Origin: a virus
Lineage: Duplodnaviria; Caudoviricetes
Length of the DNA stretch: 64,000 bases
Reading direction: 5' to 3' (one strand)
IMG/VR virus record: IMGVR_UViG_3300001525_000609
Coordinates: 1 to 64,000 of that record
Notes under the pieces: model-generated
Told to the model about the DNA's origin: nothing
The model's input: the letters and a program-made list of their open reading frames with translations, nothing else
Databases searched by the model: none
Shown here: one piece after another, positions 1 to 19,092 of the stretch
Numbering within the stretch: the stretch's first letter is position 1
Layout: each line of letters starts with the position of its first letter
Translations under genes and position numbers: made by a program

Positions 1-66
1 ACTGCGGTCCGTTCTACGCTTACTTCGCCTATAGCGCTAGCCGCGCGAATGCGGTCCGTCCCTCCT
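1..66 (+). repeat. DGR variable repeat (VR), 3' part
   Basis: Aligns ungapped to 355-420. Mismatches at VR 21, 27, 28, 30, 42, 43, 45, 61 and 66 all lie opposite an A in the TR. Confidence 0.95.
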
Positions 67-77
67 ACCGTCTTTGA
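1..77 (+). CDS. 3' end of DGR target gene (probable C-type-lectin-fold receptor-binding tail protein), truncated by the window edge
   Basis: The frame starting at nt 3 reads CGPFYAYFAYSASRANAVRPSYRL then TGA (75-77) TAA. It is the variant copy of the TR at 355-420. Confidence 0.85.
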   Translation, partial: CGPFYAYFAYSASRANAVRPSYRL

Positions 78-96
78 TAAAGGGCAGCAAACAACC

Positions 97-144
97 GCGC
101 CAGTCAGCCGGAGGCGCTGGCGCATAAACAGGGGCGCAAGCCCC
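97..144 (+). promoter_or_regulatory. GC-rich hairpins downstream of the VR (candidate DGR target-recognition hairpin/cruciform)
   Basis: GCGCCAG(97-103)/CTGGCGC(117-123) stem, then GGGGC-GCAA-GCCCC (131-144) with a GNRA loop. The position matches the hairpin downstream of IMH in known DGRs. Confidence 0.65.
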
Positions 145-294
145 GCCTTCCCGTCGGGAGACCCCGGCGGTCTGTCGTATTGTTTAAATAAGATGACTTA
201 ATCCAGAGTATCATGGATACCACCTATATCCATGGGCGGTGCGGTAGACCGCGCGGCGTCCGTGGCTCGTTGTCCTTGGGTTTCTTCGCCGACA

Positions 295-420
295 ATGGCA
301 ATGTCAATGCCTCGAATTTCCCGAATGTCGGTGGCAACTACAACAACGGCACGAACTGCGGTCCGTTCTACGCTAACTTCAACAATAGCGCTAGCAACAC
401 GAATGCGGTCCGTCACTCCA
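295..420 (+). ncRNA. DGR template repeat (TR)
   Basis: AAC-rich template (translates as NGNVNASNFPNVGGNYNNGTNCGPFYANFNNSASNTNAV) directly upstream of the RT. 355-420 is the A-retaining copy of the VR. The 5' boundary is uncertain because the VR is cut by the window edge. Confidence 0.9.
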
Positions 421-613
421 TCACGCTCCATCCCTATCAGTGGGAACCCTTATGGGAACGCTTTTCGGCTTGGAGATCAGTCCGCACAGCCCCAGCTCTT
501 GCTGAAAAATCACGGTCGGACGAGAATTGCCGACTTTGCACCACATGCGGCTTTGGTACTCCCGGAATGGGCGAAGGAAGAAGACGCGGTGCAAAAATAC
601 GGAGGGTAGTCGA

Positions 614-1702
614 TTGAAGAGGATCGGGAACATCGACGGCGTGCCGTTGTTCGACCTTGCGTTGCGCAAGGAGAATATCATGGAGGCGATAGACAACGCA
701 TCCAAAGACCATGCCCACGATCCTCAAGTCATCTAGATGAAGGAGAACAAAGAAGATTGCGCATATTGGATTTGGCAAGAAATACACACAGCGGAGTTCC
801 ACTTTTCGAAATTCCGTTCAAGAGACATATACGAGCGCGGAAAGAAGCGCCACTTATGCTACACCGTCACCTTCCCCGACAGGGTCATTCAGCACGTCAT
901 CCTCCAGATTGTCGGACCCATCCTCTTGGGAACGAGCGTGAGGGACACATACGCCGCCCAGAAGGGCAAGGGCACGCACCTCTGCTCGATGAAGGTGCGC
1001 GAAGCGATCTACAACGACCCAGAGGGAACGAAATACTATCTTAAAGAAGACATCAAGAAGTACTTCGACAACATCCCGCGAGACATCCTCTTCAATCTTA
1101 TCAAGAGGAAGATAAAGGACCGCAAGATACTCAACATCATCCACGAGTTCATCTTCGGAGCGCCCGGGCGCAAGGGCTTGCCCATCGGCATGTATTCCAG
1201 CCAGATATTCTCGTCGTTCATGCTGACCTACTTCGACCATTGGGTGAAGGAAGTCCTGCGCATCAAGCACTGTTTCAGGTACATGGACGATTGGGTATGC
1301 TTCTCCAACAGCAAGGCCGCACTCCATCGCATCCATATGCTCGTCAAAGCGAAGCTCAAGGGGGATTACAGGCTGGAACCGAAGTCCAACTGGCGCATCG
1401 CGCCCACCGCCACGGGGCTGGACTTTGTCGGATACGTCCACTACTTCACGCACGTCCTACTGAGGAAGCGCAACAAGATACGCTACAAGAGGGTGTGCAA
1501 CCTTATCAAGCGCAACTGGCTCAAGGGCATCCCGCCGACCATCAATCAACTGGCGTCCGCACGCTCATACGACGGGATGGCGAGCTGGTGCGATGGAAAG
1601 AGACTAAGGCATTTAAACTACGGACAGATTATACAGACCTTGGGTAATCCATATGATACAACATGGAACAGTCAGGGGCACGCAGGCTGTGAAGCCTGCT
1701 AA
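614..1702 (+). CDS. DGR reverse transcriptase with an in-frame TAG at codon 41 (734-736); 362 aa if read through, 321 aa from ATG 737
   Basis: TTG at 614 follows GGAGG (601-605) and begins LKRIGN, the typical N-terminus of DGR RTs. Motifs FPDRVIQH, LKEDIKKYFDNI, GLPIGMYSSQ (GxxxSQ of DGR RTs) and YMDD are present. Confidence 0.9.
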
Positions 1703-2093
1703 CATCGAGATCAACGCAGACACCGTGTACATACGCGGGTCCGTCGTCCGCAAATCCGAGACGAGGGACGAGGAGACGATGGAGTTCTGGGAGTACACCG
1801 AGGACGTGCTCAGCAAGACCGAGTACGAGGCTATGCAGGCGTCCGCACCCAACATCGGCATCGCCGACAACGCATGGGACGACGGCCTTCAGACGATGGT
1901 CAGGACCATCCTCTACGAGAGGACCGACGGCGACCGCGCCAAGCTTGAGAGGAAGATAAGGCTCGGCATCGACGTGGACGAGAATACGGCGCTCCTCAAG
2001 AAGCTGGACGAGTACTGCGACGCGGTGCGCGCCACCAAGGACGCAGAAGGCTACCCGACCAACGTGCCGTCGTATCCTGTGTACGAGTATTGA
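1653..2093 (+). CDS. Tail-fibre assembly chaperone-like protein
   Basis: C-terminal YCDAVRATKDAEGYPTNVPSYP resembles the Y..ALR......GFP....WP ending of tail-fibre chaperones. It follows the DGR cassette and overlaps the RT 3' end. Confidence 0.5.
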   Translation: MIQHGTVRGTQAVKPANIEINADTVYIRGSVVRKSETRDEETMEFWEYTEDVLSKTEYEAMQASAPNIGIADNAWDDGLQTMVRTILYERTDGDRAKLERKIRLGIDVDENTALLKKLDEYCDAVRATKDAEGYPTNVPSYPVYEY

Positions 2094-2102
2094 AACTGTT
2101 TC

Positions 2103-2122
2103 CCTCCCCTATATAGGGGAGG
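2103..2122. terminator. Perfect 20-bp palindrome between convergent genes
   Basis: CCTCCCCTATATAGGGGAGG is its own reverse complement and lies between the stops at 2093 (+) and 2133 (-). Confidence 0.6.
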
Positions 2123-2132
2123 ATGCTTTCTC

Positions 2133-2603
2133 TCAAAGGAACGCGACCGCATTCACTGCGATCGTAGAATTCGTTTTCGACCAAACATAGATTTTATCCG
2201 TTGCCGATTCCGCAATAGGATAATACTTGCCTGAAAGGGCAGCATCATGGCCGAATGTGACGATCGGGGTGTGCGATGATGTGCAACCAGTCAGAGATAT
2301 TGTCCCCTTGTACGGATATCCTGACACAGATGTGTCAGAGACCCACGTAACAGATGCGTTTTCAACAGAAAGCACGTTGGAATCATCAGATATCGTTCCA
2401 ATCGCAGTCCATGAGCTTCCTAGGCTCTGATATATCGTGCCTTTGACGTAAGTTCCATCGCTTGTTCCGACATAGATCACTATGAATCCGTTGTTCTTCG
2501 AACTGGCAGTAGGCATTGAGGTCGCAGATCCGACCATTTTTCCTGTGAAGTATGAATCTACTACACCATTGATGTTGAGATCGCTGTAAACAGTATTGAC
2601 CAT
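2133..2603 (-). CDS. Ser/Thr/Gly-rich beta-strand protein, possible minor tail or fibre protein
   Basis: 156-aa ORF with a GAGGTG RBS upstream. Composition is typical of virion fibre domains; no family recognised. Confidence 0.45.
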   Translation of the reverse strand: MVNTVYSDLNINGVVDSYFTGKMVGSATSMPTASSKNNGFIVIYVGTSDGTYVKGTIYQSLGSSWTAIGTISDDSNVLSVENASVTWVSDTSVSGYPYKGTISLTGCTSSHTPIVTFGHDAALSGKYYPIAESATDKIYVWSKTNSTIAVNAVAFL

Positions 2604-2801
2604 TAGCTCTCACCTCAGGGCTTCTATGCAGGGATAGAAGTTTTGCTTTATAAAAAATAGCAATCTGGATGTATTTGCCGTCCTCATTGTTTGATTGAGG
2701 CCGCTTTGAACAGATACTGCTTTATACGATAGGTACGTTGTAGGAATCGCTTCTCTTTTTTGAAGCTGGCATGCTCCTTGTGTGCTTAGTGACATCACAA
2801 A

Positions 2802-2836
2802 CCTCTTGAGAGCCGGTCCCATCTGCTCTCAAGAGG
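2802..2836. promoter_or_regulatory. 12-bp inverted repeat in a divergent intergenic region
   Basis: CCTCTTGAGAGC (2802-2813) / GCTCTCAAGAGG (2825-2836), 11-nt loop, upstream of a TATA-like TTTATA at about 2854. Confidence 0.5.
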
Positions 2837-2868
2837 CCCTATCGGTCTGAATCTTTATACATTGGCGC

Positions 2869-3510
2869 GTGTATCCCCTTCTCATGCCTGAGCTAACGAT
2901 CGAAGTCGTGCCCGCTGATAGCGGAAAAGCAGAGAATGTCGCATTCTGTGAGTCTCCTGCCCCGAAAGACGATGATCCTGAGAAATCCGATGACGCGAAC
3001 CTCACCAGAGAACTCATCGCCGAGGAGCAGGATGCCGTTAATGATTACGAAGCCCTGTCTGATAAGGCTGAGACTGAGGATGCCAAAAAAGTCTATGATG
3101 ACATAGCGAATGAAGAAAAGGTTCATGCCGGAGAGCTCCTTATTCTCCTGTTGAAACAAGATCCTGCTGAAAAAGGCGCTAGAAAACAGGCGCATAAGGA
3201 ATCGGAGGAGGGGGATGATGACAGCGAGAATAAAGGTGATGACGGACCCGAAATCATAGGCGAGTCGTTCAGAGACATGTTCGAGAACGGTCGGAAGAAA
3301 GTCATCGCCAAGGCGATGGGGTGTGACGAGGAGGATTTTGAAAAAGGGACTGAAAAAGGCAGATATAAGCATAAAGAACCTAGGCCCCGTAAGCTAGGAA
3401 AGCCTCTTGGGAACTCTAAGCCAGATTCGCCTACGATTCCTCAGGATGAAGGCCCGCCTTCATCATTCGAACAGGGTCTCAGAAGGGGAGAACGGTTCGG
3501 GAAGTATTGA
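2869..3510 (+). CDS. Ferritin/rubrerythrin-like domain protein with acidic tail
   Basis: EEQDAVNDY...IANEEKVHAGELLILL..QDP matches the EE..A...Y / EEK.H di-iron helix pair. Confidence 0.6.
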   Translation: MYPLLMPELTIEVVPADSGKAENVAFCESPAPKDDDPEKSDDANLTRELIAEEQDAVNDYEALSDKAETEDAKKVYDDIANEEKVHAGELLILLLKQDPAEKGARKQAHKESEEGDDDSENKGDDGPEIIGESFRDMFENGRKKVIAKAMGCDEEDFEKGTEKGRYKHKEPRPRKLGKPLGNSKPDSPTIPQDEGPPSSFEQGLRRGERFGKY

Positions 3511-3511
3511 T

Positions 3512-6500
3512 ATGGAATCTTTCAAAGAGATGATGGACGGGATGGCCCGTAATCACGGCTCCTGGTGGACGTCTGAATTTGCCAAAGGCGCAGAGAATGA
3601 TTATGGCGTCGGAAGCGATTATGATCGGGAGAGAAAAGCGAAAAAAGCTATTAGAACACGTCGTAATTTTCAATCAGCAGGCACACCCGTGTTCAATTCC
3701 AATGGGAAAATAAGAGAAGTAAAGAACGCCGAAAAGGACGATGTTCCCTACGAATATTCGCCTATGCGTACTTTCGATGACAGGTGGGGTATCTCGCGTA
3801 CAGCCAATATGGTCTCGCAAGGCACGTATTGGACTGTTAACGCGCCATACATATATGTTATGCCGAATGGGAAGCTCACGAATCAGCCACGCGAAGCCGT
3901 GCAATACGGCGGGCACCCCGTCACCATCGTCGACCTGAAACAGAGCAATCTGCCTGATGACCTGGCGACCCTCAAGAAGAAAGCAGGCAAGACTACAGGC
4001 TATACCTTCCGCCCTATGGGGGACCTACGCAATATCCAGAACGAGCTTCAGCGCAGTGCCGACAATTTCGCGTTCGAGTCTTGGTTGGATAAACAGCTGT
4101 ATTATAAAATCAAGAATAAGATCCAATCTGACTTAGGGATACCTATCTATGGATACTATTATGGGGATGTGCCTTCTGTTACAAAGGAATATGCAGACGA
4201 GTTGGCGAAACGCCAGTTGAAGGAAAGATTCAACAACGGCGAGATATCTTCAGAGATGGCTTCCGATCCTGCGGTCTTGAAGAGCTTGGCCGACAGGCTG
4301 TATCAGGAAAAAGCTGTTCCTTTGGTTCAATTTGTTCGTGAAACCAATCCGGAAAAGGTAAGGAAGCTTACTACATACTATCGGATGCATGTCCTTCCGG
4401 ATGAAAAGAGGAGATATGCAAAGGTCCGTGCGAGGGAAGCGGCAGAGTATCAGGATATGGTTGAGCAAGCCGAAAAGATACTTGCAGACGAGATAGCTGC
4501 ATTTCAAGAGAAGGACCTTGAAAAAGATCCATCAGGCAATACTTCGAAAATCGACACGAGCACACCTGATGCATGGGCGAAAGGAGGGTATGCGTACATA
4601 CCCCCCAGCAAGTTCGGCTACGGCGAAATGAAGACTAATGACTATGGAGATACATACCAATCTTACAACAATGAGTTCAAGCGCATCCTCAGGAATCTCT
4701 ACGCACTCAAATACGGAATCGTCGAGAAGCCGCCGAAGCCGAAGGAGGAGGAATCCCTTCCTAGCCCCGATGAACCTGGCATCACAGAGGAAGAGAAGAT
4801 CAAGCGTCAGAAGGCGATCAATTTCAAAGAATTTGCCGACAGTCAGGCAGAAGCACGTGCACTCGCTGAGAAGAAGACATATGCAGACGACAGACGCAAG
4901 GAATCATTGGACGAGCTCAACTATCAGAGGCGTCGGAAGCAGGCAGAAGAAGATCATGAAATACGGCAGATATATCTCCGTTTCAAGGCCCTTCAGCATC
5001 TCGATGAAGATCTAATGCCCGAATCCTATTGGAGGTATATCAAAGAGGGAAAGCATATCAGCCTTGAGGAGCAGAACAAACGCGTTAATGAGGTCTATGA
5101 TGGCATTCATAATCACCTCAAGAACAAGGCTGCATACTTAGACAGGATCAAGGACGTCAACACCCCGATTGAAGAGCTGAACAGGCTCGCTATCGAAGCC
5201 GCACAGCCCCATAACGACCCTGCTAAGCATGACGAGCTTCAGAAGAGATTCCACAAGAAGCTAGAATCAGTCTGCAAGACGATAGACAAGATCATGAAGG
5301 ACAAGAACCATGATAAAGCCATCGGCGATTTCGGATATGACAATCTTAAGGCGATTCGCAAGATGAATTCCAGAGAATATGTTGCCGAGCTGGAAAAGGA
5401 CAAGAAACAGCCTGGCTCAGGCGTGATCATAAAGCCTCTCTCGAAGAAAGCGCTGTTTAAATTATGGGGTGGAATCGATGAAGATGGCGAATATGGTGAA
5501 GTCGGTGCGAAAGTGTCGGGTGAGAGGGGTCGGATCGGTGACTTGATAAAGACGATCGAGGCGCCCATCATATCCGAGAACAAGTTGCATGAGATGATGA
5601 TGAGGGGTGAGGACCCTCGTGACAATCCTGCTGTGATGGCGAATCTTGAACAGAGCGGGTTGACGACTTCAGGCCTTCTCCCAGCACACTGGCTTCGGCA
5701 GTTCACCGGCACAGCTGCAATCAGGAAACAACGGGAGCATGAGAATACTCGCGAATATATAGATGAGCTCCACAGACAGGTTCGGAAAGACATACAGAGC
5801 AATCGCACGGGCGATGCTCTGCCATCTGCATTGAGGATGATCTATGCTATCGCCAGTGACGATTCCGAGCCGGAGGATCTGCAGAAGAAAGCCAAGGATG
5901 TTCTGGCGATGGTTAAAAAAGAACTCGTAGCTTCTCTGGATCCGAGGTCGCCCAAAGCAGTGGGCAGCAGAGTTCCGCCAGAGCCGACGATACCCCATTA
6001 TCCGGAGTACGAATCTAATCCGTATGAGGAATATATGCTCAATGGGGGGCGTGACATCACAGAGAACATCATGCGTGCTAGAAGGAACTCTCGTAATTTA
6101 GAGTATCTTATGCCGTTTTTCAGAAAGATTACACCCAAGTTGAATTCTATCGATCCTCAGATTCGTGAAGAGGCTGAGGCGAAAGTGCTGAGGTTCATCA
6201 AGGATTATATCTACCCTGACATTCATGGACGCAGAGCGATCGATGATTATATCGGAAGCCGCGTATACGGTCCGTTGGATGTCAACACTGATACGCAGCC
6301 AGAGGAAGCATGGGCAAGAATCAAGGGTGCGCCGAAGAAAGAAAAGGATAAGACTAAGCCTGCGGAGAGGAAACTGGAAATCAAAGCCGTGAAAGATACT
6401 CCTGACGTTATCGAAAGGAGTTTAAGGGCACTCCAGGATTCAGGCGTGACTGTGGATATTGATGGGAAACCAACTGATTTCCTTCATGTCGTAGACCGCA

Positions 6501-7582
6501 TCTACGATGGCATCATGTCTGATATAAACAACAACCCGCCCATAGCTGAATCTAATTCTAAGAGTGGATCTGTGTTCGGTACATATTACCCTTACCATAA
6601 TGGGGAGATAGGTGATCAGCTTGCTTCAGCTGTGACTCCTCAGCTTATAGATTATCTCAGTTGGGCTCCGGAAAGCGTTTTGACAGGAAAAGACCATGCG
6701 AAAAGGCTCAGAGAGCTTATCGACGAGGACATCCCTCATGATCCGAACGACGAGACCCAAGGCACACGCAAGCGTTCTAAGCCCGAAGTCGTTGATGCGT
6801 TCATGGATGAATTCGATCCTGATCGGCCCGATAGTTCTGCAACCGGAAATCCGCAGGCCGATGCCATTGCGACCGATGGCAACGCAACGGTAAAACGCAG
6901 CCCTAAATACAATGCCCTCAGAAAGGATGTCGCGTCTGCCATGCGTCAGATCGGCCATCAGAACATGCTTCGCAAGGAATTTGAGAAGTACGGCATCGAC
7001 ACATCGAAAGTGCCTGACCCGTCGAAAGAAGAGAAAGAGCTGGCAAGGGTCTCGTTCCCTGTTAGACAGAAATCAGAACCTCAGGTTGCAATCAATTCTG
7101 AGGTTACGGCTGGAACACCCGTGACGTCTGCGACGCCTGCTTCGCCGTCTGTAGCTCCAGTTGCACCTTCCGTCACGCCTACAACGCCTCTTGCGCTCAA
7201 GCCCGAGCCCACTGCACCTGTCGTTTCCGATGCGATGGGCGCGACGCCTACTATAGGCGTGTCTGGCGATCAGGATCTAGATAACAAGCCGACAAACACA
7301 GAAGTTCCGAAAGAAGCTCAAAGAAATCTTGATGATTTTTATAAGAGCAGGGCCTTCTTAGAGAACATGCAGGATATGTCCATCCGCGAGATGATGAGCG
7401 CGATTGCCAAGAGCGATTCCAAGGAAGGGCACCCTTATGGAAAGCCTGTGCAAGGTAGCACGTTCGTGTTCGGTTCTACAACCGCCACACTAGGCGATGG
7501 GAAAGAGCCAGTCATGCCCGTCGACATCCCGAAAGGAGAGACCAATGGCGAAGGCGCGACTTCGAAAGAGATCACCTTGTGA
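3512..7582 (+). CDS. Large (about 1356 aa) charged protein, putative head-internal/ejection protein
   Basis: Uninterrupted ORF. ATG 3512 follows the TGA of the previous gene. Helical and charged, with a Pro/Thr/Ala-rich linker near the C-terminus; no catalytic motif recognised. Confidence 0.55.
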   Translation: MESFKEMMDGMARNHGSWWTSEFAKGAENDYGVGSDYDRERKAKKAIRTRRNFQSAGTPVFNSNGKIREVKNAEKDDVPYEYSPMRTFDDRWGISRTANMVSQGTYWTVNAPYIYVMPNGKLTNQPREAVQYGGHPVTIVDLKQSNLPDDLATLKKKAGKTTGYTFRPMGDLRNIQNELQRSADNFAFESWLDKQLYYKIKNKIQSDLGIPIYGYYYGDVPSVTKEYADELAKRQLKERFNNGEISSEMASDPAVLKSLADRLYQEKAVPLVQFVRETNPEKVRKLTTYYRMHVLPDEKRRYAKVRAREAAEYQDMVEQAEKILADEIAAFQEKDLEKDPSGNTSKIDTSTPDAWAKGGYAYIPPSKFGYGEMKTNDYGDTYQSYNNEFKRILRNLYALKYGIVEKPPKPKEEESLPSPDEPGITEEEKIKRQKAINFKEFADSQAEARALAEKKTYADDRRKESLDELNYQRRRKQAEEDHEIRQIYLRFKALQHLDEDLMPESYWRYIKEGKHISLEEQNKRVNEVYDGIHNHLKNKAAYLDRIKDVNTPIEELNRLAIEAAQPHNDPAKHDELQKRFHKKLESVCKTIDKIMKDKNHDKAIGDFGYDNLKAIRKMNSREYVAELEKDKKQPGSGVIIKPLSKKALFKLWGGIDEDGEYGEVGAKVSGERGRIGDLIKTIEAPIISENKLHEMMMRGEDPRDNPAVMANLEQSGLTTSGLLPAHWLRQFTGTAAIRKQREHENTREYIDELHRQVRKDIQSNRTGDALPSALRMIYAIASDDSEPEDLQKKAKDVLAMVKKELVASLDPRSPKAVGSRVPPEPTIPHYPEYESNPYEEYMLNGGRDITENIMRARRNSRNLEYLMPFFRKITPKLNSIDPQIREEAEAKVLRFIKDYIYPDIHGRRAIDDYIGSRVYGPLDVNTDTQPEEAWARIKGAPKKEKDKTKPAERKLEIKAVKDTPDVIERSLRALQDSGVTVDIDGKPTDFLHVVDRIYDGIMSDINNNPPIAESNSKSGSVFGTYYPYHNGEIGDQLASAVTPQLIDYLSWAPESVLTGKDHAKRLRELIDEDIPHDPNDETQGTRKRSKPEVVDAFMDEFDPDRPDSSATGNPQADAIATDGNATVKRSPKYNALRKDVASAMRQIGHQNMLRKEFEKYGIDTSKVPDPSKEEKELARVSFPVRQKSEPQVAINSEVTAGTPVTSATPASPSVAPVAPSVTPTTPLALKPEPTAPVVSDAMGATPTIGVSGDQDLDNKPTNTEVPKEAQRNLDDFYKSRAFLENMQDMSIREMMSAIAKSDSKEGHPYGKPVQGSTFVFGSTTATLGDGKEPVMPVDIPKGETNGEGATSKEITL

Positions 7583-7584
7583 GT

Positions 7585-7615
7585 GCATGGGGGTTGAAGT
7601 TCTCAACCCTCATGC
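7585..7615 (+). terminator. Hairpin after the large ORF
   Basis: GCATG-GGGGTTGA / TCAACCCT-CATGC imperfect stem followed by a T-rich tract. Confidence 0.5.
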
Positions 7616-7663
7616 CTAAACCTTTTTAACGCTCATTTTTGATAATTGTGTGAGGTATGAATC

Positions 7664-8830
7664 ATGAAATCCTCTACACTTTCGATTACATTTGCGACCA
7701 TGGTGCTGGTCGCGGCCTTCGCAGGCATCATCGTCGTTGGTGAGGACGCTGACGCTGGTGATGCTAAGGTCCTTCAGTACACGGTCGGCACAACCGTTTA
7801 TTCTGAGACCGTCAACACCGACACCGTGATCCTCAAAGACCTCGCGACTCTGGGCTGCACTATGCCCGAAGGCAAGACCTTTAAGGGATGGGCCTCCGCT
7901 GATCCTGATAAGACTACTCCGACTACGATCTACAGCGCAGGCTCGACCTATGCGCTATCGACCGGGCTGACCCTGTGGGCGGTCGTCGAGAAAGTGACCT
8001 ATAAAGTTACATTTGCTTACGAAGATGGAACTTCTATCCTTGCTAAAGAGAAGCTTGAGTATGACTCCACTCTGACTCTCCCTGCTAAGGCGACCTCTGT
8101 CGCTGCTGGAAAGGTCCTGGAGTTCCGTCAGATTGACGGGCAGATCTTCATCGGATGGGCGCTTGCTGACGAGCCTGGGCTGGTCGTCATCGCCGCCTCT
8201 GAGAAGACCATCAAGGTCGTCGGCGACGCCGATTACGTCCCTGTCTACGCCCATGACCCCGTGCTGACCTTTATCGTCGACGGCACCCAGATCTACAAAC
8301 ACACCGAGTATGGAGCAGTCCTTCCGACCGCTCCCTCTAAAGACGGATTCAGCTTCGTCGGCTGGTCCGACAGCGAGATCACCATCCCTGATGCAGACCT
8401 TGCAACCTATGTTGCGATCCTCCTCGATGATGTCACCCTGACTGCTGTCTGGGAGCCTGCCGTCTACACCGTCACCTTCGTCGTTGACGGCGAGACCGTC
8501 ATGGTCCAGTCCGTCAAGCACGGGGATGTCGCCACTGAGCCCAAGTTCGTGCCTGCAAAGGACGGATACAGCTTCACTGCGTGGGCTGTCGACAACAAAG
8601 CATACGATTTCGCCTCTCCCGTGACCGGTGACATGACCATCACTGCATCTTTCGAGAAGACTCCTGTTCCTGCACCTACGGGGCTCAAGAACCCGACTGT
8701 TCAGATGATTCTCATCATCGTCGGAACTATCGTTCTTGCGCTTATTGCCCTGATGATCTGGAAGAGGGATGTTATCAGAGCTGCACTGGTCAAGAAACTT
8801 GACAAGGGAAACAATGGAGGGTCTGCCTGA
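7664..8830 (+). CDS. Membrane-anchored adhesin-like protein with InlB B-repeat (Listeria-Bacteroides repeat) domains
   Basis: N-terminal signal peptide ending ...VVGEDADA. Repeated YTVTF..DG...P.KDGYSF..W units. C-terminal transmembrane helix followed by a basic tail (WKRD). Confidence 0.8.
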   Translation: MKSSTLSITFATMVLVAAFAGIIVVGEDADAGDAKVLQYTVGTTVYSETVNTDTVILKDLATLGCTMPEGKTFKGWASADPDKTTPTTIYSAGSTYALSTGLTLWAVVEKVTYKVTFAYEDGTSILAKEKLEYDSTLTLPAKATSVAAGKVLEFRQIDGQIFIGWALADEPGLVVIAASEKTIKVVGDADYVPVYAHDPVLTFIVDGTQIYKHTEYGAVLPTAPSKDGFSFVGWSDSEITIPDADLATYVAILLDDVTLTAVWEPAVYTVTFVVDGETVMVQSVKHGDVATEPKFVPAKDGYSFTAWAVDNKAYDFASPVTGDMTITASFEKTPVPAPTGLKNPTVQMILIIVGTIVLALIALMIWKRDVIRAALVKKLDKGNNGGSA

Positions 8831-8928
8831 TTTCAAGGATAGAACGGGCTCTCACATCCAGAGGATTCTGGGTGCTGAAAGTCTGTTCCATCCCCTTTCA
8901 GATAGCCTTGATATACAGAGTTGATAAG

Positions 8929-9387
8929 ATGATATCTGATACTGAAGCCATGAACTACATCCTCGGCGTGCCTGCCGAGTTCGTGCCGATGACCATGGTC
9001 ATCGCCCTCGTCGTCGGACTGATCGGAACCTTCGCGATGTCCCTGCCCGCCTATTACGAGCAAGACAAGATCGTTGCAAGATCAGGAGGAGAGAAACTCT
9101 CTTATGGTCTTTCCTATCTTTCGGCCAACATCATAACAGTCATCGCATGCGTGATACTGTCTCTTGTCATCATCGGATGGTACGCTGAAGCATCCGGAGC
9201 CGTTGTGACCGGCGGACTTTGCTACGCAGTCGCTTTTGTTGTGTCTATATTCATCGGATTCGGGGGTTCCAAGCTGGTATCTCTCCCTTTCGTGGAATCT
9301 TACCGCAACAAGGCCAAGGCCGCTGATGCAAGGGCTGAAAGCACCGAGACTGCTATCGTCGAGATCCCTACGCTCAACAAGCAATAA
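8929..9387 (+). CDS. Multi-pass membrane protein (possible holin-like protein)
   Basis: Three to four hydrophobic segments and a charged C-terminus. Confidence 0.45.
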   Translation: MISDTEAMNYILGVPAEFVPMTMVIALVVGLIGTFAMSLPAYYEQDKIVARSGGEKLSYGLSYLSANIITVIACVILSLVIIGWYAEASGAVVTGGLCYAVAFVVSIFIGFGGSKLVSLPFVESYRNKAKAADARAESTETAIVEIPTLNKQ

Positions 9388-9446
9388 GCGAATCTCAGCT
9401 AAACCTTTTATCAACCCTCGGCATATACTGTGCCGAGGGGTAATTT

Positions 9447-9911
9447 TTGTCAAGGAAGTCTGAAGAATTCGAGGAGCAATTGCGCAAGGACATCGATTAT
9501 GACGACATGCGCACTTTGCCGACCGATCTGTTGGAACGCAACTGCGATGCCGATACCGTCAACAGATTCAGAGACAGCCTATACAGACAGGAATCGCGCA
9601 TCATCCGTAGAATGACCGAGAGATCGGGAACTGCGGACGAGATGGAGAAATACAGGGCCACGAAGGGCGATTATGGAATAGATGCCCGTGAGTTCGCGCT
9701 TCACGATAATGTCGCTTGGATCTACTTCAATTATTATGGGGAGAACTTCGAAGGCGGAGAGATAATGGACAATGATAAAGCGCCTTACGAGTGCCCCGGA
9801 TGCCACCTCAAATACGGCATGACATTGAAACAGATACCCGAGAGGTGTTTGAGGTGCGGATGGCTGACCCCCCTGGGCAGATTGATAAGAGATGGTGTTC
9901 TTAGGCGTTGA
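9447..9911 (+). CDS. Protein with C-terminal C4 zinc ribbon
   Basis: CPGC...CLRC motif. Confidence 0.6.
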   Translation: MSRKSEEFEEQLRKDIDYDDMRTLPTDLLERNCDADTVNRFRDSLYRQESRIIRRMTERSGTADEMEKYRATKGDYGIDAREFALHDNVAWIYFNYYGENFEGGEIMDNDKAPYECPGCHLKYGMTLKQIPERCLRCGWLTPLGRLIRDGVLRR

Positions 9912-9941
9912 CCTTTTAAATCATGGAGGGGTTTTAAGATC

Positions 9942-10397
9942 ATGAGCTATGATTCTGAAATGGACAGGATTTCCACGAAGCTGCGGAACAAGAATTCACA
10001 ACGTGACGTGACCGATATCATCCGCGCAATAATGATGTCACCTGTTTCATCCAAATTAGGGACAGATATAATCGACGTTGACGGCACGCGCCCCATAGAC
10101 ACGCTGAAAGGCAAACCGCTTGATGTCCAGACTGCTATGCTTCTAGGCGTGACCTCTAAGGCCCTTAAGACCACGGACCTGAAATGCATTGAGCTTCTTC
10201 TGAAATACGGCGGATACGAGCCACCTAAGCAACAGCAGGTCACAGTAGATCTGCCTGAGTTTGTCGATACGATAGAGCTTCGTGCAGCTATGAAAGCAGA
10301 AGCTGATTCAGTCGTGGTCGAAGCTGTTGTCCCCGATGTCAAAGAGGAAGACGCGCTCGATGTGCCCGAGGACGATCATGGCGAGACAGCAGATTGA
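9942..10397 (+). CDS. Putative terminase small subunit
   Basis: 151 aa, helical, overlapping the start of the terminase large subunit. The call is positional. Confidence 0.5.
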   Translation: MSYDSEMDRISTKLRNKNSQRDVTDIIRAIMMSPVSSKLGTDIIDVDGTRPIDTLKGKPLDVQTAMLLGVTSKALKTTDLKCIELLLKYGGYEPPKQQQVTVDLPEFVDTIELRAAMKAEADSVVVEAVVPDVKEEDALDVPEDDHGETAD

Positions 10398-11751
10398 TGT
10401 AGGCGCCCTTGTCGGGAGGGGGTATGACGAGTTCTGGACAAACAAATCGTTGTATCGTCTCTGCAAGGGCGCTAAGGGGTCGAAGAAAACGACCACGTGC
10501 GCCATATATTACATCTATCACCTGATGAAGTACCCTGATGCGAACCTCCTTGTAGTACGCAAGGTCTATCGTACCATCAAAGATTCAGTGTTCGCCAATC
10601 TGATCTGGGCAATAGACAAGCTCGGCGTCACATCTCTTTGGAAGATCAACAGGTCTGACCTTGAGATGGTATACATCCCCACGGGACAGAAGATCTTGTT
10701 CAGAGGCATGGATGACCCATATAAGCTCGCATCCATCACTGTATCCAAGGGCGTCTTATGCTGGGTCTGGTTCGAGGAATTCTTTGAGATCACCTCTGAA
10801 GACGCATTCAACAAGCTCACTATGTCAATCCGCGGTCAGATGCCTCCTGGTTCGGGCCTATGGAAACAATTTACATGCACATTCAACCCGTGGTCGGAGA
10901 ACTCTTGGATCAAGAAACGCTTCTTTGACAATCCTGATGCCGACACGTTCACGTGCACGACTACGTATAAGGATAATGAGTTCTTAGATGAGGTCGATAT
11001 CGCCAGATATACAGCGATGTATAAGAACAATCCCCGCCAGGCGCGTGTCTATTGTGATGGAGATTGGGGCATTGCCGAGGGGCTGATCTACACCAATTGG
11101 CGCGAGGAGGAGTTCGACATACATGAGGTCCTCGCCAGTTCATCGAGGATAAAGACCTCGTTCGGGCTTGATTTCGGGTATTCCATATCATACAATGCGT
11201 TCATAGCCATCGCAGTGGATCTGGAAGGACAGAAACTATGGGTCTTTGACGAATTGTATTTCAGAGGCGTAGGGAATGCAGAGATAGCACGCAGGATAAC
11301 TGAAGCTGGCTACTCTAAGGAGCAGATATGGGCCGACCCCGCAGATTGTAAGTCTATTAGCGACCTGCAAAACGGCATCCCCTATGAAGAATATATCGAC
11401 GGAGTGCCCACGCTGACCAATTGGATACTGCCCGCCATCGTTCCTGCACTGAAGGGCCCCGATAGCGTCAATTTCGGGATAGTGCAGTTGCAATCATTCG
11501 AGATGATCATCCATCCATCCTGCATCAACACGATAAAAGAGCTTAACAACTATCGTTATGATCAAGATAAGGACGGGAATTTCCTGAATAAGCCGATCAA
11601 GGATTGGGATCACTTGATGGATGCAATGAGGTATGCCTGTTGCAAATGGTTCATCCGTGGAAAAGGAAAGGTCGTCGAAGCCAAAGGTTCAGACTCTAGA
11701 GGAGAGAAGAGATCACATGGCTCTAAGCGTGTGGTGTCTTCCGTCGTATAA
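10378..11751 (+). CDS. terL: Terminase large subunit (PBSX-like)
   Basis: Walker A-like GAKGSKKTT, LVVRK, FRGMDD, Walker B WVWFEE, TFNP, nuclease motifs GLDFG and DHLMDAMRY. Confidence 0.95.
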   Translation: MARQQIDVGALVGRGYDEFWTNKSLYRLCKGAKGSKKTTTCAIYYIYHLMKYPDANLLVVRKVYRTIKDSVFANLIWAIDKLGVTSLWKINRSDLEMVYIPTGQKILFRGMDDPYKLASITVSKGVLCWVWFEEFFEITSEDAFNKLTMSIRGQMPPGSGLWKQFTCTFNPWSENSWIKKRFFDNPDADTFTCTTTYKDNEFLDEVDIARYTAMYKNNPRQARVYCDGDWGIAEGLIYTNWREEEFDIHEVLASSSRIKTSFGLDFGYSISYNAFIAIAVDLEGQKLWVFDELYFRGVGNAEIARRITEAGYSKEQIWADPADCKSISDLQNGIPYEEYIDGVPTLTNWILPAIVPALKGPDSVNFGIVQLQSFEMIIHPSCINTIKELNNYRYDQDKDGNFLNKPIKDWDHLMDAMRYACCKWFIRGKGKVVEAKGSDSRGEKRSHGSKRVVSSVV

Positions 11752-11782
11752 ATATAATGCAACGTATACAGAAAGTGATATT

Positions 11783-13519
11783 ATGGTTCGCGTATCTGGT
11801 CCGCGCACGTCGTTTGCGAAATCAAACAGCATAACGGCACCTGCTCCGGACGTTCATGACGTCGCATTGTCTCTTGCGACAGGAATCAGCGACAAAGAGA
11901 CTTATAACCAGATGAAAGAGGGCAGTCGCATACGCACTGCGATCATGAATGCCGAGCGTCCGTCGAATGTCTGGTTCAGAGTGACCGATCAGACGAGCTA
12001 CTGGTACATGTATGCGCTCATGGACTGGTACAGGTCTGAAGTATCTGTTTTGTCTACAATCATATCCAGGTCTACCACAGAGCTGTTCCGTCATGATCTG
12101 GACCTTCAACCGAAGTTCGCAAGGAAATGCACAGAGTGCGGTCATGAGCATCAGACAATCATCACAAAATGTCCTGTATGCGGTTCTGTGCACCTTCGCA
12201 AACCCGATGATGCCCAGAAAGCGTATTTTGTCAGGCCTAATGGGAGGTCGTTCATAGATGAAGCCAATGGCAACGGGCAATCTCTGAAAGACGTGCTCAA
12301 ATCCTATGCCGAGAGCCAATTTCAGAACAATGAAGCATACATGCTCTGCGTGACCGGTGATTTCGTAGACCCGGACAACTGCGAGCTTCAGAGATCATAT
12401 CCTCTTGAATTCCTCGCTCAAGACCCTAAATTCGTCATGGGTCTTTTCAACGACAAAGGGGTGTTCGGCACCACCTATGCTTTCACAAGAGACCAGCGCG
12501 ACTCCATCATCAATCTGGACGAGACACCTGAAGCTCTTAATGATTGCACTGAAGAAGGAAAGATCCTGTACCCTGCTGCGTGGAAGATAGGCGAGTCGTA
12601 TGGAGCCATGGGCAAATACCTTCTGTACACCTCTGATGAAGTGTACCACGACCACTGGTTCAGACAGGCGCTCACATACGGGGTGCCGATATGGTATGAT
12701 ATTGAAGATGACCTGCTGACATATCACTATCTGGAGAAGCACTTCCACAAAAGGTACAAGTTCGGGTATGTCCGTAAGATGGTCATCCTGCCAGGATTCA
12801 ATGCAGAGGATGTGGAGGATATCACGAAAGGAATCCAAGACATTCTTGCTACAAACGACAATTCCATTCCGATCATATGCACTCCACCTCAGATACCAGG
12901 CACTGCCGAGATGAAGGCTCAGACATTGGAGCTGGGTACTGAAGATGCGAGCCAGGCGATGCAGATCAAGAATGATATCCGCGATCGTCTTTGTGCCCAT
13001 GCAGGAATGCCTAACATCTTTGCAGGCGATGTAGAAGCATCAGGAGGGATGAACAATGAGTCTCAGCAGATCACTATCTTTGATAGATACCTGATGGACA
13101 AATACAGCTACATTGATAATCTTTGCAAATGGATAATGAGCTGGTTCCCACAGATAACCGATTGGGAGCTGGTCGTCAACAGGCCTTCCAAAGCATACAC
13201 TGATGCTAAGAGACGCATCGATAAGATCCAAGAGGCTCAGATGATGAAAGGTCTTGGATTCGATGTGTTCTATGAGAATGGCGACTTCCGTTTCTCCGAA
13301 GAACCCATAGACCAGATACAACGCAAACAACAAGAAGCTATGATGGCTGCAAGCGCGAATCAGCCTCAACAAGAAGTCGTGGATGGTGGCATGGTGCCGG
13401 GCGATGGTGAGGGGCCTCCTGAGGAAGGGACCGCTAGACGGGAGGATGACGAGATCGATGCCTCAAAAGATGAAATCGACCTGTCGAAACGTGAGGCTGA
13501 GGACGCATATTCGGGATGA
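11783..13519 (+). CDS. Portal protein with a zinc-ribbon insertion
   Basis: Follows TerL. About 580 aa with GMPNIFAG...GGMNNE and an acidic tail. Contains CTEC...CPVC. The start could be 11717. Confidence 0.75.
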   Translation: MVRVSGPRTSFAKSNSITAPAPDVHDVALSLATGISDKETYNQMKEGSRIRTAIMNAERPSNVWFRVTDQTSYWYMYALMDWYRSEVSVLSTIISRSTTELFRHDLDLQPKFARKCTECGHEHQTIITKCPVCGSVHLRKPDDAQKAYFVRPNGRSFIDEANGNGQSLKDVLKSYAESQFQNNEAYMLCVTGDFVDPDNCELQRSYPLEFLAQDPKFVMGLFNDKGVFGTTYAFTRDQRDSIINLDETPEALNDCTEEGKILYPAAWKIGESYGAMGKYLLYTSDEVYHDHWFRQALTYGVPIWYDIEDDLLTYHYLEKHFHKRYKFGYVRKMVILPGFNAEDVEDITKGIQDILATNDNSIPIICTPPQIPGTAEMKAQTLELGTEDASQAMQIKNDIRDRLCAHAGMPNIFAGDVEASGGMNNESQQITIFDRYLMDKYSYIDNLCKWIMSWFPQITDWELVVNRPSKAYTDAKRRIDKIQEAQMMKGLGFDVFYENGDFRFSEEPIDQIQRKQQEAMMAASANQPQQEVVDGGMVPGDGEGPPEEGTARREDDEIDASKDEIDLSKREAEDAYSG

Positions 13520-14172
13520 TCATGGAGTGGGAGTATCATATCACTGCACCGGATGGAGGCGACCCCATCCCTATAATCCTGAAGATGCTGGAATCATATG
13601 ATGAGCTGAAGCCTTGTTCAGTCCACGTGGATTCAGGCCATGCGGGGCACGTCGAGTTCGGCACAGAGCCTGCCAATACGACTCCGAGATACAATCTTGA
13701 TTCGATGAATAGAATGATCTCTCCCGTCAAGCAGGCTATCAGAGAATGGGCTGCGACGAAATTCGGATTGAGCGACCCGGGGGAGATAGCACGTGCAGGA
13801 GACCGCATCTATCACAACATCATGGAGAACGGCATGCTCCCTATACCTTATCTTCGGCCTGCTATGTATGATGTGAAGAACGAATTGGAAAGTGAAGACG
13901 ATTCTATTGTAGATATCCCTCACCTGAACGGTGTTGTATGGGAGATCTGCGAAAAGATCGCAGACAGAGCCAAGGAGATCATCACTGCAAATGATACAAT
14001 ATACACAGAGGAGCTACGGGATTCAATAAAAGTTATGAATCCCTCTGATGTTCCTGTCAGCTCATCGCCTGATTCCGTGTCAACTGGAATGATACCTGAG
14101 TCGATCTGGCAAAGCGATGACCTTGCAAAAGATGGGATACGCAGACCTCGTCCTGATTGGAGGCGTCGCTGA
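13516..14172 (+). CDS. HK97 gp10-like morphogenesis protein
   Basis: HAGHVEFGT, PYLRPAM and TEELRDSI motifs. Confidence 0.55.
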   Translation: MIMEWEYHITAPDGGDPIPIILKMLESYDELKPCSVHVDSGHAGHVEFGTEPANTTPRYNLDSMNRMISPVKQAIREWAATKFGLSDPGEIARAGDRIYHNIMENGMLPIPYLRPAMYDVKNELESEDDSIVDIPHLNGVVWEICEKIADRAKEIITANDTIYTEELRDSIKVMNPSDVPVSSSPDSVSTGMIPESIWQSDDLAKDGIRRPRPDWRRR

Positions 14173-14609
14173 TGTATCCGAATCGCAAATCGTTGAGAGT
14201 GTTCGAAATGCTCTGTGACGTGCCGAATCGTTGGATCGATGTCATGGAAGTCGCCCGCATCCTCAACATGACAGCGCGCCAAGTATCTACTGCGGTCCTA
14301 TGTCTGCCTGACGGACTGATCCAGAAGGAACGTCATGATGGCATTCTCCAGGTCCGCCTGAACGGAACGCCCGAGGAGCTGACTCATAAGCTGTTCGAAC
14401 TCAAGGCCATGTCTTTGGACGTCTCTGAGGATATGAAGGATAAAGTGCAATCTGTCCTGACAACAGATTGGCTCACGGTGGAAGAAATTTGCGAATTGAC
14501 CGATCTTACTCCCAGCGAGGTGTCGAACACCCTCTCTGTATTGGAGAATGCCGCCTTGAAATATGTAGGGCGGGTTCAACTATGCAGAGTGGCCAAGCTG
14601 GATATGTAA
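14172..14609 (+). CDS. Tandem winged-HTH DNA-binding protein
   Basis: Two HTH-like segments: WIDVMEVARILNMTARQVSTAV and WLTVEEICELTDLTPSEVSNTL. Confidence 0.65.
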   Translation: MYPNRKSLRVFEMLCDVPNRWIDVMEVARILNMTARQVSTAVLCLPDGLIQKERHDGILQVRLNGTPEELTHKLFELKAMSLDVSEDMKDKVQSVLTTDWLTVEEICELTDLTPSEVSNTLSVLENAALKYVGRVQLCRVAKLDM

Positions 14610-14697
14610 GATTCCTTCAATTCATAGACAGGATTAAAGTCCATGTCGTGATTAAAGCACGCAGATTGAAGTTGAGGTTGTCCCATAGGAGGTTGCG

Positions 14698-15726
14698 ATG
14701 TATCAGAATGTATTCGAATTGCCGAATCAGGTCCGTAATTCATTAGATGAATCAGATCAGAAGACCTTTCTGGACGTATATAACAAAGCAGACCCGAAAA
14801 CGACCGAAGAAGCTCGTGCTGCGCTGAGAAAAGCATGGATGGCCTGCAAAGACCTGCCTTCTTCATTCTCATTCAAGATAATCGCGTCAGTGGAAGATGT
14901 GGATATCGACAGAGAGATTCTGGATATCGATTCTTTGAAGAACCATATGGATGATTTTATCGATCGCGGAGGAAATATCCAGAACGACCATCATAATTTC
15001 CAATTAGGCACGATCTGGGATTGGGAGCCGTATAAAGTCGATGATAAAAACGGTATAGTGGTGTGGGGAAACCTGTTCGGAGGCGACAGCGTATATGATG
15101 ACGCGAGGGAAGCTTTCGTTAAGGGGACAAACAGTCTTTCAGTAGCAGGCTCGGCAGACAGAGGCAGATTCCAATGCGATGAAAAGGGATGTTACACCCG
15201 TCGTAATGTGAATCAGTTGCTGGAGATATCACTGTGCAAAGTGCCTGCTAACAGCTACTGCAAGCTTCAATGGTACAATGAAGATGCGAAGTTCTCCAAA
15301 TCGAAGGATGATTCGGAGATTCCAATGGATGTGGTCGAATACACGATCCATAAGGACTATCAATACTGCCCCATTCAAAGGCTCAAGCGCGACCTGAGAA
15401 AAGCAGGATTCGATGCTCATGCAAGGACAAACGGCGTGTTCATACCTACAGACGACTTCAGGAAGACTCGCATCATCGCTAAATCCTGCGGAATAATCGC
15501 AGAGCCTGTCGAAGGAGGCGCTCTCCTCAACAGGCGCAACGATATGATCGAGAAATATTATCGTGAAGGCACATCATCAGGATACATGGATGATGCGGGG
15601 AACCTTAAGCCTACCGTGACGAAAAGCAAATTCTTCGAGATAGCAAAGTATGGGTTGCTCGCCAACGATGGAAAGAATTGGAGCCTGATGTTCCCCGATG
15701 CAGATTTTGACGAAAATGACCCGTAA
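14698..15726 (+). CDS. Prohead (maturation) protease, HK97/XkdF-like
   Basis: ASVEDVDIDRE, catalytic His context IQNDHH, SLSVAG and LEISLCKVPAN motifs. Lies between portal and scaffold/capsid. Confidence 0.85.
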   Translation: MYQNVFELPNQVRNSLDESDQKTFLDVYNKADPKTTEEARAALRKAWMACKDLPSSFSFKIIASVEDVDIDREILDIDSLKNHMDDFIDRGGNIQNDHHNFQLGTIWDWEPYKVDDKNGIVVWGNLFGGDSVYDDAREAFVKGTNSLSVAGSADRGRFQCDEKGCYTRRNVNQLLEISLCKVPANSYCKLQWYNEDAKFSKSKDDSEIPMDVVEYTIHKDYQYCPIQRLKRDLRKAGFDAHARTNGVFIPTDDFRKTRIIAKSCGIIAEPVEGGALLNRRNDMIEKYYREGTSSGYMDDAGNLKPTVTKSKFFEIAKYGLLANDGKNWSLMFPDADFDENDP

Positions 15727-15768
15727 TTGCTTAAATACATAACGGCATTATGCCGATAGGGTCTGCCT

Positions 15769-17748
15769 ATGAACGATGATGAGAAATGGGACGAGTTCAA
15801 ACGGAATTCGGCCCGTATCCAGAAGGCATCTGTTTCTGAGAAGCTCGATGCCATCGCTGCATCTCTCAACGCTATGCATGCTGATACGAGCCAGATTCCT
15901 AACCTCAGTTCCAAAATCATGGGCGATGAGGGGGCCATCGAGACTGCTAACAGTACAGCGATGGGCTCTCCGACGCCCGATGCGCCTCCTGATATGGGAG
16001 GCCTTGGAGATGAATCTATGAATACAGAGGATATGAACATGCCTCCTGCACCCGAAGATGGAACAGGTGCTGCTCCTGAGGCTCCTCCTGTCGGAGGCGC
16101 ACCTCCTAGCGCACCTGCGCCTGATGCGCCCCCTGTTGGCGGAGATATGGGCGACATGCCTGGTGCACCAGGAGCGCCTGAAAGCGAAGGGGATGACGAT
16201 CTTTCCGACGAGGATATCGAAGCCCTTCTCGATGAAATATACGGGGCGATGGATGGGAGTAAATCTGATGAAGCTCCGCCTGAACCTGCTATCGGCAACG
16301 CAGACCCAGAGGTTCCTGCAACGGGCGGTGCAGGGCTTGCAGATGCAGCCAACAATCTCTTGGCAGCGCTGAGACAAGCCGCGCATGAAGCTGTGGATGC
16401 AGACGATACGGGCAAAGTGATGGAGCTTATTCAGCTTGAGCAACAGCTCCAGCAGACCCTAGGGGGCATCACCGATCTGACTGAGCCCGATACTACAATC
16501 GGTCCTGAAGGCGATGCGGACTTGAGCGATGCAGGTGCTATGCCTGAAGACGAGGGTGCAGGAATGGCTGGCGCAGATGCGCTTGATGGTTTCGCGCCCG
16601 ATCTCTCTCCAGATGACCTTGGAGAAGCTTCAGATATTGCCGATGGTGCAGACCTCCCTCCTGAAGAAGGCGAATCCGAGCCTGCACCTGATGCCGATTC
16701 AGGTATCGACACCAGCTTGAGCAATCTTAGCAGTGATAGTAAAAGCGAGAAGGGCGACAGTGCGGAAGGAGATTCCAAAGAGAAATCTGCGGGCGACTCT
16801 AAGGACGACTCGAAAGATGATGATAAAGAATCCAAGGACGATGATGACGACAAAAAAGATGTCAAAAAGTCTGCGGATTGCGACGAGGACGAAGATTGCG
16901 ACGAACCTGAATCCGAAGATATCGATGAAATCATCAAGAAATCCATGATACCTCCCACCCCTTCATTCAAAGACATGATGGAGGGCAAATTCGATATGAA
17001 GTACTTCATGAAAGGCGATAGAGAAGGATATGTCGATGGGGACTTGATTTTCAAGGACCCGATGGTGGACAAAGTAGATATGGAGGGCATGCCCGATGGG
17101 TGCGGTCGCTATCTCGCCAAATCAGATGATCGTATTGCCACTGCCAGAGGTATCTTCGATAGGGAGATGATGACCGGATATACCGACCCTGACTCCATCG
17201 CACAGCCGAGGGGAGCCGAAGAAGCTCTAAGTCATACAGGTTCCACGAACCCTGAGGGGGTATCACAGGCAGACCGCATCATGGACATCAGGAAATCTTC
17301 TGATGACGACATAGCATCCAGTGGAACCGCACAGGAAGCACTCAGTCATACCGGCACAACCGACCCCGAGTCCGTTGCACAAGCAGAGCCAGCAATCAAT
17401 ATTGATGGCGGTGATGAATCGGAGGGGGAGACTGTTCAGAAATCTGAAGAGAACATCGCCCCTGCAATGGTCGAGCCTCCGAAAGCTGACGAGAACTCCA
17501 ACATCGCAAAGGGCCGTCATATCATGACGCTCAAGGAGATGATGAACGGCATCGCGACTTCACAGAGCAGGCCTTTCGCCAAATCCTCCGTATCGGGGGA
17601 GATATCTCGGCCTGAGTTGACTGCTGCTACCGAATTCCAGAAATCACAGAATCCGCCTGTCAGGATGGGACACGGGGTCGATCCCATGGATGTGATTAAA
17701 AACGATTTGAACGAGTACAACCTTTATAAGGCTAGGACTAAATTCTGA
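15769..17748 (+). CDS. Acidic, low-complexity scaffolding protein
   Basis: 659 aa rich in D/E/P/G/A, directly upstream of the capsid gene. Internal duplicated EALSHTG.T.PE.V.QA unit and many xxKS sites. Confidence 0.7.
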   Translation: MNDDEKWDEFKRNSARIQKASVSEKLDAIAASLNAMHADTSQIPNLSSKIMGDEGAIETANSTAMGSPTPDAPPDMGGLGDESMNTEDMNMPPAPEDGTGAAPEAPPVGGAPPSAPAPDAPPVGGDMGDMPGAPGAPESEGDDDLSDEDIEALLDEIYGAMDGSKSDEAPPEPAIGNADPEVPATGGAGLADAANNLLAALRQAAHEAVDADDTGKVMELIQLEQQLQQTLGGITDLTEPDTTIGPEGDADLSDAGAMPEDEGAGMAGADALDGFAPDLSPDDLGEASDIADGADLPPEEGESEPAPDADSGIDTSLSNLSSDSKSEKGDSAEGDSKEKSAGDSKDDSKDDDKESKDDDDDKKDVKKSADCDEDEDCDEPESEDIDEIIKKSMIPPTPSFKDMMEGKFDMKYFMKGDREGYVDGDLIFKDPMVDKVDMEGMPDGCGRYLAKSDDRIATARGIFDREMMTGYTDPDSIAQPRGAEEALSHTGSTNPEGVSQADRIMDIRKSSDDDIASSGTAQEALSHTGTTDPESVAQAEPAINIDGGDESEGETVQKSEENIAPAMVEPPKADENSNIAKGRHIMTLKEMMNGIATSQSRPFAKSSVSGEISRPELTAATEFQKSQNPPVRMGHGVDPMDVIKNDLNEYNLYKARTKF

Positions 17749-17758
17749 GGCAGATATT

Positions 17759-19063: not shown

Positions 19064-19071
19064 AGCTAAAA

Positions 19072-19087: not shown

Positions 19088-19092
19088 CCCCC

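Follow-up and report, generated by a model that had tools for sequence, protein, structure and literature searches.

The DGR of Bordetella phage BPP-1 (bRT-Avd-TR RNA; PDB 8ub7-8ubf) is the closest solved counterpart of the element described here. Both have the same reverse transcriptase (RT) family and fold with YMDD and IGxxxSQ motifs, a template repeat (TR)/VR pair differing at adenines only, and a phage tail/receptor-binding protein as target. In contrast to BPP-1, the host assigned here is archaeal, no Avd was recognised, with a conserved 146-aa gene following the RT, and an in-frame UAG stands where bRT has Glu37. A DGR is also present in Caudoviricetes sp. vir215 (BK063676), a virus with a Methanomassiliicoccales host. 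Its target is likewise a PHROG 5302 tail protein and its RT is 37% identical to the one studied here, but is encoded by a single uninterrupted ORF of 344 aa.

In published Methanomassiliicoccales genomes, pylT, pylS and pylBCD are all present (PMC4153887). 'Ca. Methanomethylophilus alvus' uses TAG for 1.6% of its stops and has 16 predicted extra pyrrolysine (Pyl) proteins (Borrel et al. 2014, PMC4153887); for hosts of this type, constitutive and efficient Pyl insertion was inferred, such that in-frame amber codons become stable mutations (PMC4153887). In M. luminyensis-type hosts 11.3% of the stops are TAG, and Pyl insertion may be regulated (PMC4153887). The predicted non-methyltransferase Pyl proteins of 'Ca. 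M. alvus' (Cas1, MtxX, DGGGP synthase and others; PMC4153887) resemble our case in that a single TAG lies in an ordinary gene whose homologues have sense codons, in a genome with about 2% TAG terminators; the proposed logic, amber codons as stable mutations under constitutive suppression, is also the same. Here, however, the gene is viral and not cellular, and its TAG is common to a virus clade and gave way to sense codons in two lineages.

Among viruses, stop-recoded gut phages (crAss-like, Lak) also carry in-frame stops in phage genes that are read by a suppressor tRNA. The late genes of these phages contain numerous in-frame stops, and a suppressor tRNA is usually encoded by the phage itself, whereas we found one TAG and no viral suppressor tRNA, and propose that the Pyl system of the host is used. 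Smacoviruses linked to 'Ca. M. intestinalis' avoid amber terminators (PMC6336856). They share with our virus a low use of TAG terminators as the signature of a Pyl-decoding Methanomassiliicoccales host, but show terminator avoidance only, without an in-frame TAG within a viral gene. In the searchable literature, which did not cover a key methanogen-virus compendium, our search yielded no paper that predicts pyrrolysine in a viral gene. New here is an amber codon that lies inside a viral gene, is inherited across a virus clade and presumably encodes pyrrolysine.

The DNA analysed (the window, 64,000 nt) comprises bases 1-64000 of the 82,622-nt IMG/VR record IMGVR_UViG_3300001525_000609 (CheckV completeness 98%). 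The RT gene, on the plus strand like all features of the locus, begins with TTG 614, 7 nt downstream of the Shine-Dalgarno (SD) sequence GGAGGG (601-606). Forty codons (614-733; LKRIGNIDGV...DHAHDPQVI) lead to the in-frame TAG at 734-736, RT codon 41 and predicted to specify pyrrolysine. ATG 737 follows immediately, and the same frame continues through codons 42-362 (737-1702) to the TAA at 1700-1702, so that the read-through RT has 40+1+321 = 362 codons. This agrees with an earlier note on this DNA, which had described the TTG start behind a ribosome-binding site and the passage through TAG into the RT body without frameshift. The assignment of the protein as a DGR RT could likewise be substantiated: the read-through product matches Pfam RVT_1 (4.6e-17), contains the catalytic YMDD and the IGxxxSQ-type motif PIGMYSSQ, and has the DGR bRT 8ub7 as its best solved relative (HMM E 7.5e-61).

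The target gene, which encodes a tail protein (PHROG 5302, 7e-18) of 545+ aa, begins at base 80988 of the record; its 3' end occupies positions 1-77 of the window, including the stop codon TGA (75-77). The VR ends 10 nt before this TGA. One part of it lies at the end of the record (82582-82622) and the other at window 1-65, with about 31 nt lost between them. Since the VR is divided between the two record ends and the target gene closes with the TGA at 75-77, the contig is a circular permutation whose break falls within the VR. Probably, the assembler stopped here because of the TR/VR repeat itself or of different VR versions in the sample. The TR is located at 283-419. All 12 TR/VR differences fall on TR adenines; this specificity shows mutagenic homing, and judged by these sequence features the DGR is a working element. 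With a DGR-clade RT, an adenine-only TR/VR pair and a VR at the 3' end of the target gene, it is a regular member of the family, though no Avd was recognised: neither the 146-aa ORF at 1653-2093 nor any neighbour gave a Pfam or PHROG match. The 146-aa ORF shares its first 50 nt, in a different frame, with the RT 3' end, is found downstream of the RT in all relatives read and has a product 82% identical in the relative L014 (see below); it is possibly a DGR accessory protein. The C-terminal tails of the RTs vary in length among the relatives: as the RT frame continues across the 146-aa gene, its first stop comes after 348 to >500 codons. Elsewhere in the window, a gene at 7664-8830 (plus strand) encodes a protein with Listeria-Bacteroides repeat (Flg_new) domains, a repeat often found in the surface proteins that gut Methanomassiliicoccales carry.

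In every one of the RT clusters closest to ours (P0001, P0002 and P0004-P0009; 72-98% identity), the called protein begins at the Met that directly follows the TAG position. The relatives of full length (P0003, P0012-P0017 and others) have a conserved N-terminus of 40 residues, and the 40 residues upstream of our TAG correspond to this N-terminus and to that of the solved Bordetella DGR RT, as the earlier note had supposed when it called them the usual DGR RT N-terminus. At the DNA level, at least 14 distinct relatives, with 66-81% amino acid identity, share TAG-ATG at this codon, in the context ...DPQV(I/E/G)-TAG-ATG... (L002/L003, L004, L005-L009, L036, L117-L121 and L154), and the two codons adjoin in every TAG-bearing relative read. 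These assemblies are independent of each other, coming from IMG/VR (among them L005-L009, five genomes of 31-85 kb), ENA, Logan and, in one case, a JGI/ENA metagenome contig; a metagenome scan added only L036 as a further close relative. The genomes with TAG-ATG are far apart: the part alignable to the window's genome is only 5-9 kb long, with a nucleotide identity of about 70%. Of 12 comparisons with the window, 9 show an excess of synonymous over non-synonymous differences in the upstream 40 codons (e.g. 16/8, 19/4 and 23/7). An SD sequence precedes RT codon 1 in the window as well as in L003 and L004, in the latter two as AGGAG / GGAGGG at the same place. Thus, an in-frame UAG flanked on either side by homologous coding sequence is conserved among relatives. 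Because TAG-ATG is clade-wide, the upstream codons mostly show a synonymous excess, and the SD and start position recur in L003 and L004, these sequence patterns indicate that the upstream 40-codon piece is translated, and that the TAG is neither an error nor a recent decay.

At codon 41, the family column is variable (N, Q, E, A, R, M, F). The Met after it is ancestral, being present in relatives without TAG. In a maximum-likelihood RT tree, 13 TAG sequences are united with L116 (support 100/100). L116 has AAC (Asn) at codon 41 and is nested within the TAG clade, with L008 and L009/L036 branching earlier (95/86). Further, a 2358-nt Logan contig from run X2, 97% identical over 618-2084, has a C at 734 and therefore CAG (Gln), while the Logan contig from run X7 keeps the T. 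Two lineages have hence exchanged the TAG for a sense codon (AAC and CAG); TAA or TGA was never seen at codon 41 in the relatives read. Of 22 conserved K/E/Q codons in the 13 TAG sequences, 19 alternate between A and G as the third base, and variation is seen in 149 of 159 conserved degenerate columns of the TAG-clade alignment. As 3 of the 22 comparable codons are likewise invariant, the invariance of TAG over TAA is by itself only modestly significant.

A second TAG was found in L014 (L014:9845-10909; NCBI GCA_963615525.1, a syntenic 83-kb contig) and L015. It is located in-frame at RT codon 49, in the context ...ACTDE-TAG-GDMIEQ..., where the nearest kin have Tyr; codon 41 is a sense codon in both, and this TAG, 8 codons downstream of position 41, is of independent origin. 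Two further stop codons may be mentioned here. In G002 (IMGVR_UViG_3300045988_182039, C1 ~32300-33040, minus strand), an HNH/AP2-like endonuclease paralogue has a TAG at codon 15 (MSELIDLSGMRFGH-TAG-YVIEQ), where its paralogues have Leu; this gene is either a decayed homing endonuclease or another case of a Pyl codon. The second is a single TGA reported inside the match to a DGR RT with 40% identity (L131; G006:C199:40387-41439) on a 79-kb viral contig of a Methanomethylophilaceae MAG.

Structure prediction by AF2 yielded one compact unit for the read-through RT (pLDDT 88.7), with codons 1-40 forming a beta-hairpin and helices at pLDDT 80-98. Residue 41 lies in a predicted helix spanning residues 37-44, away from any domain border. 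The model superimposes on the Bordetella DGR RT (8ub7_A) with Foldseek TM scores of 0.81/0.89 and an rmsd of 2.3 Å over 331 columns; in the profile alignment, the upstream segment corresponds to bRT residues 6-36 and the TAG codon to Glu37. At the RNA level, RNAalifold on 12 sequences revealed no conserved PYLIS-like structure around the TAG (-5.5 kcal/mol, covariation -0.46). PYLIS-like elements have been reported as not required (PMC4153887).

As to the host, the portal (11633-13519) and helicase (57511-59295) proteins are 51% and 47% identical to those of BK063680 ('Caudoviricetes sp. vir335', 83,070 nt), whose recorded host is Methanomassiliicoccales and whose genome is of the same size class (83 kb); no other close match to either protein was found among phage records. 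No RT was detected in vir335 at E <= 1e-5. A portal scan of one genome each of 185,579 GTDB species gave six relatives, the best four of which (68, 67, 60 and 55% identity) are located in Methanomethylophilaceae or Methanomassiliicoccaceae MAGs. PylS scored above its curated cut-off in all four of these MAGs, compared with one of 14 control genomes. The portal-bearing MAGs contain other DGR RTs, with 39-46% identity, and these are uninterrupted. Long matches to window 1-20000 exist in about 11 of 261 Methanomassiliicoccales genomes; a search of the same 20 kb for CRISPR spacers in Methanomassiliicoccales genomes found none, the 25-40-nt matches obtained lying outside repeat arrays and being treated as chance. 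Relatives with portals of 47-49% identity are also L126 (CAVKKO010000001.1, 83.7 kb, which is complete-genome size for this virus group) and L127 (3.9 kb), from MAGs labelled Bacteroidaceae and Lachnospiraceae; both are probably mis-binned. On the basis of these sequence relationships, the assignment to Methanomassiliicoccales holds at the order or family level, in line with the Pyl-capable host group that the earlier note had named, and gut Methanomethylophilaceae are the most likely host family.

We also considered stop codon use across the virus genome, for which conservation-based and codon-usage-based gene calls replaced a greedy ORF list. Comparison of the window's genome with four relatives yielded 56 gene ends in conserved frames, namely 44 TGA, 12 TAA and no TAG, and the RT codon is the only internal TAG of these conserved frames in the five genomes. 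The codon-usage call predicts 94 genes covering 87% of the genome, with 75 TGA, 17 TAA and 2 TAG stops. As TAG accounts for 15.5-21.9% of the stop trinucleotides found off-frame, two TAG terminators in 94 are far below expectation (P <= 2e-5). The single tRNA gene is a Gln(UUG) (window 23929-24003, minus strand), and no tRNA with a CUA anticodon was found in the whole 82.6-kb record. The avoidance of TAG terminators (2/94) matches that of 'Ca. M. alvus' (1.6%) and points to a host that decodes UAG constitutively, as hosts of the alvus type appear to do.

The two TAG-terminated ORFs of the codon-usage call, 34822-35253 (minus strand, score 35.5) and 38441-38755 (plus strand, score 6.3), are without family match or conserved homologue. 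Another ORF, 29792-30163 (minus strand, 110 aa), ends with ...KQELKC-TAG and is not conserved in the four relatives. Its readthrough would add 12 codons (GFKATEEEEELE) up to a TGA that overlaps the next ATG, and this extension doubles as the GGAGGAGGA ribosome-binding site of the next gene; readthrough is here neither supported nor excluded. The 13 TAG-ended ORFs of the greedy list were mostly shadows of real genes and were discarded. For example, a 452-aa ORF at 17738-19096 (minus strand) is the shadow of the major head protein gene on the plus strand (17762-19060; PHROG 24667, 69% identical to the G003 copy). Lists of TAG-readthrough ORFs proved uninformative, since non-coding frames open as well.

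According to our proposal, the virus would infect Methanomassiliicoccales, most likely gut Methanomethylophilaceae, with a host carrying tRNA-Pyl(CUA), PylS and PylBCD and reading UAG largely as pyrrolysine. Translation of the RT would begin at TTG 614, and host Pyl-tRNA would probably decode the UAG at 734-736, giving a single RT of 362 residues with Pyl at position 41, a variable position of the family within the N-terminal helix; the Pyl decoding in the RT mRNA is deduced from sequence. In addition, a fraction of the ribosomes may stop at UAG and possibly restart at the AUG next to it. The RT would copy the TR (283-419) into the VR at the 3' end of the tail protein gene with adenine-specific errors. 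The TAG would have arisen once, at the base of the RT clade, and would persist because it is effectively a sense codon in such hosts. We favour decoding as pyrrolysine because the codon is specifically TAG in a genome that shuns TAG terminators, because only sense codons have replaced it and because a second TAG arose independently; moreover, the host group decodes Pyl and the codon sits within a helix of a single fold. Given the terminator avoidance, the two sense replacements and the lack of a conserved readthrough RNA element among the 12 sequences, the TAG behaves as a rare sense codon and is not a demonstrated switch.

Alternatively, ribosomes might terminate at UAG and reinitiate at AUG 737, yielding a 40-aa peptide and a 321-aa RT that act jointly, or the truncated RT alone. 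Gene callers already deliver these two ORFs, translational coupling at abutting stop and start codons is known in archaea, and the strict adjacency of TAG and ATG is suggestive, since an ATG directly after TAG is expected with a chance of 0.022 per codon in the RT gene. In L014 the order is TAG-GGA-GAT-ATG, with the ATG two codons after the TAG (chance ~0.10), and this Met is derived, the nearest kin having Gly or Gln. Reinitiation after termination would lead one to expect such arrangements. On the other hand, the Met after codon 41 was there before the TAG, ATG 737 lacks an SD sequence, and the cut would fall inside a helix of one compact fold. The stop type does not vary freely as in a termination-reinitiation pair, the site being never TAA or TGA and twice a sense codon. 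With 92 of 94 genes ending in TGA or TAA, it is improbable that TAG was adopted as a true terminator in two independent events and kept in all descendants; in a Pyl host UAG would be leaky anyway. We therefore regard stop and restart as unlikely, though still as a serious rival. Slightly less likely again is the idea advanced in the earlier note that hypermutation is gated by pyrrolysine. In such a reading, a TAG read as Pyl would be kept by selection, limiting RT dosage or tying RT synthesis, and hence tail-fibre hypermutation, to charged tRNA-Pyl and thus to methylamine metabolism, the abutting AUG providing an N-truncated second product whenever UAG acts as stop. Such a gate would fit the persistence of the TAG in a clade with synonymous sites near saturation, the early location of both independent TAGs (codons 41 and 49 of ~360), where termination releases a short harmless peptide, and the restriction of conserved internal TAGs to the RT gene in five genomes; the possible regulation of Pyl insertion in M. 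luminyensis-type hosts (PMC4153887) points the same way. However, the use of TAG for only 2% of the virus's terminators points to a host with constitutive UAG decoding, sense codons took the place of the TAG in two lineages, it is nothing unusual for a sense codon of the RT alignment to be invariant, and RNAalifold found no regulatory RNA element in the 12 sequences. Because alvus-type hosts appear to decode UAG constitutively, metabolic gating of the RT by the host looks unlikely, and this claim of the earlier note could not be supported.

Two further alternatives did not withstand the analysis; the earlier note had listed a nonsense mutation and a sequencing error. When read by table 11 the RT is interrupted, as it would be if a nonsense mutation had frozen the DGR. 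Against such a pseudogene, which we consider very improbable, stand the clade-wide TAG with both flanks conserved, the lack of other stops or frameshifts in any copy, the 12 of 12 adenine-specific VR differences as the mark of mutagenic homing, and the contig break within the VR, which fits VR heterogeneity in the sample. Nothing except the single TAG itself would argue for a sequencing or assembly error, or for a virus-wide reassignment of TAG (code 15-like, with a suppressor tRNA, as in some gut phages). Since independent assemblies agree on TAG-ATG, the sole tRNA is Gln(UUG) and the RT codon is the only internal TAG in conserved frames, this explanation can practically be dismissed.

If the UAG is indeed read as pyrrolysine, viruses of Pyl-decoding archaea would adopt the expanded code of their host both ways, avoiding TAG as a terminator and tolerating or using it as a sense codon. 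Because standard gene calling splits such RTs into ORFs of 40 and 321 aa, DGR surveys of archaeal viruses will mis-annotate them. The combination of TAG-terminator avoidance and in-frame TAGs could also serve as a signal for host prediction. With one UAG, an abutting AUG, and CAG and AAC alleles, the locus represents a compact natural test case for UAG as Pyl codon, stop or restart site. Should the gate after all prove true, the rate of receptor diversification of the virus would be coupled to the methylamine metabolism of its methanogen host.
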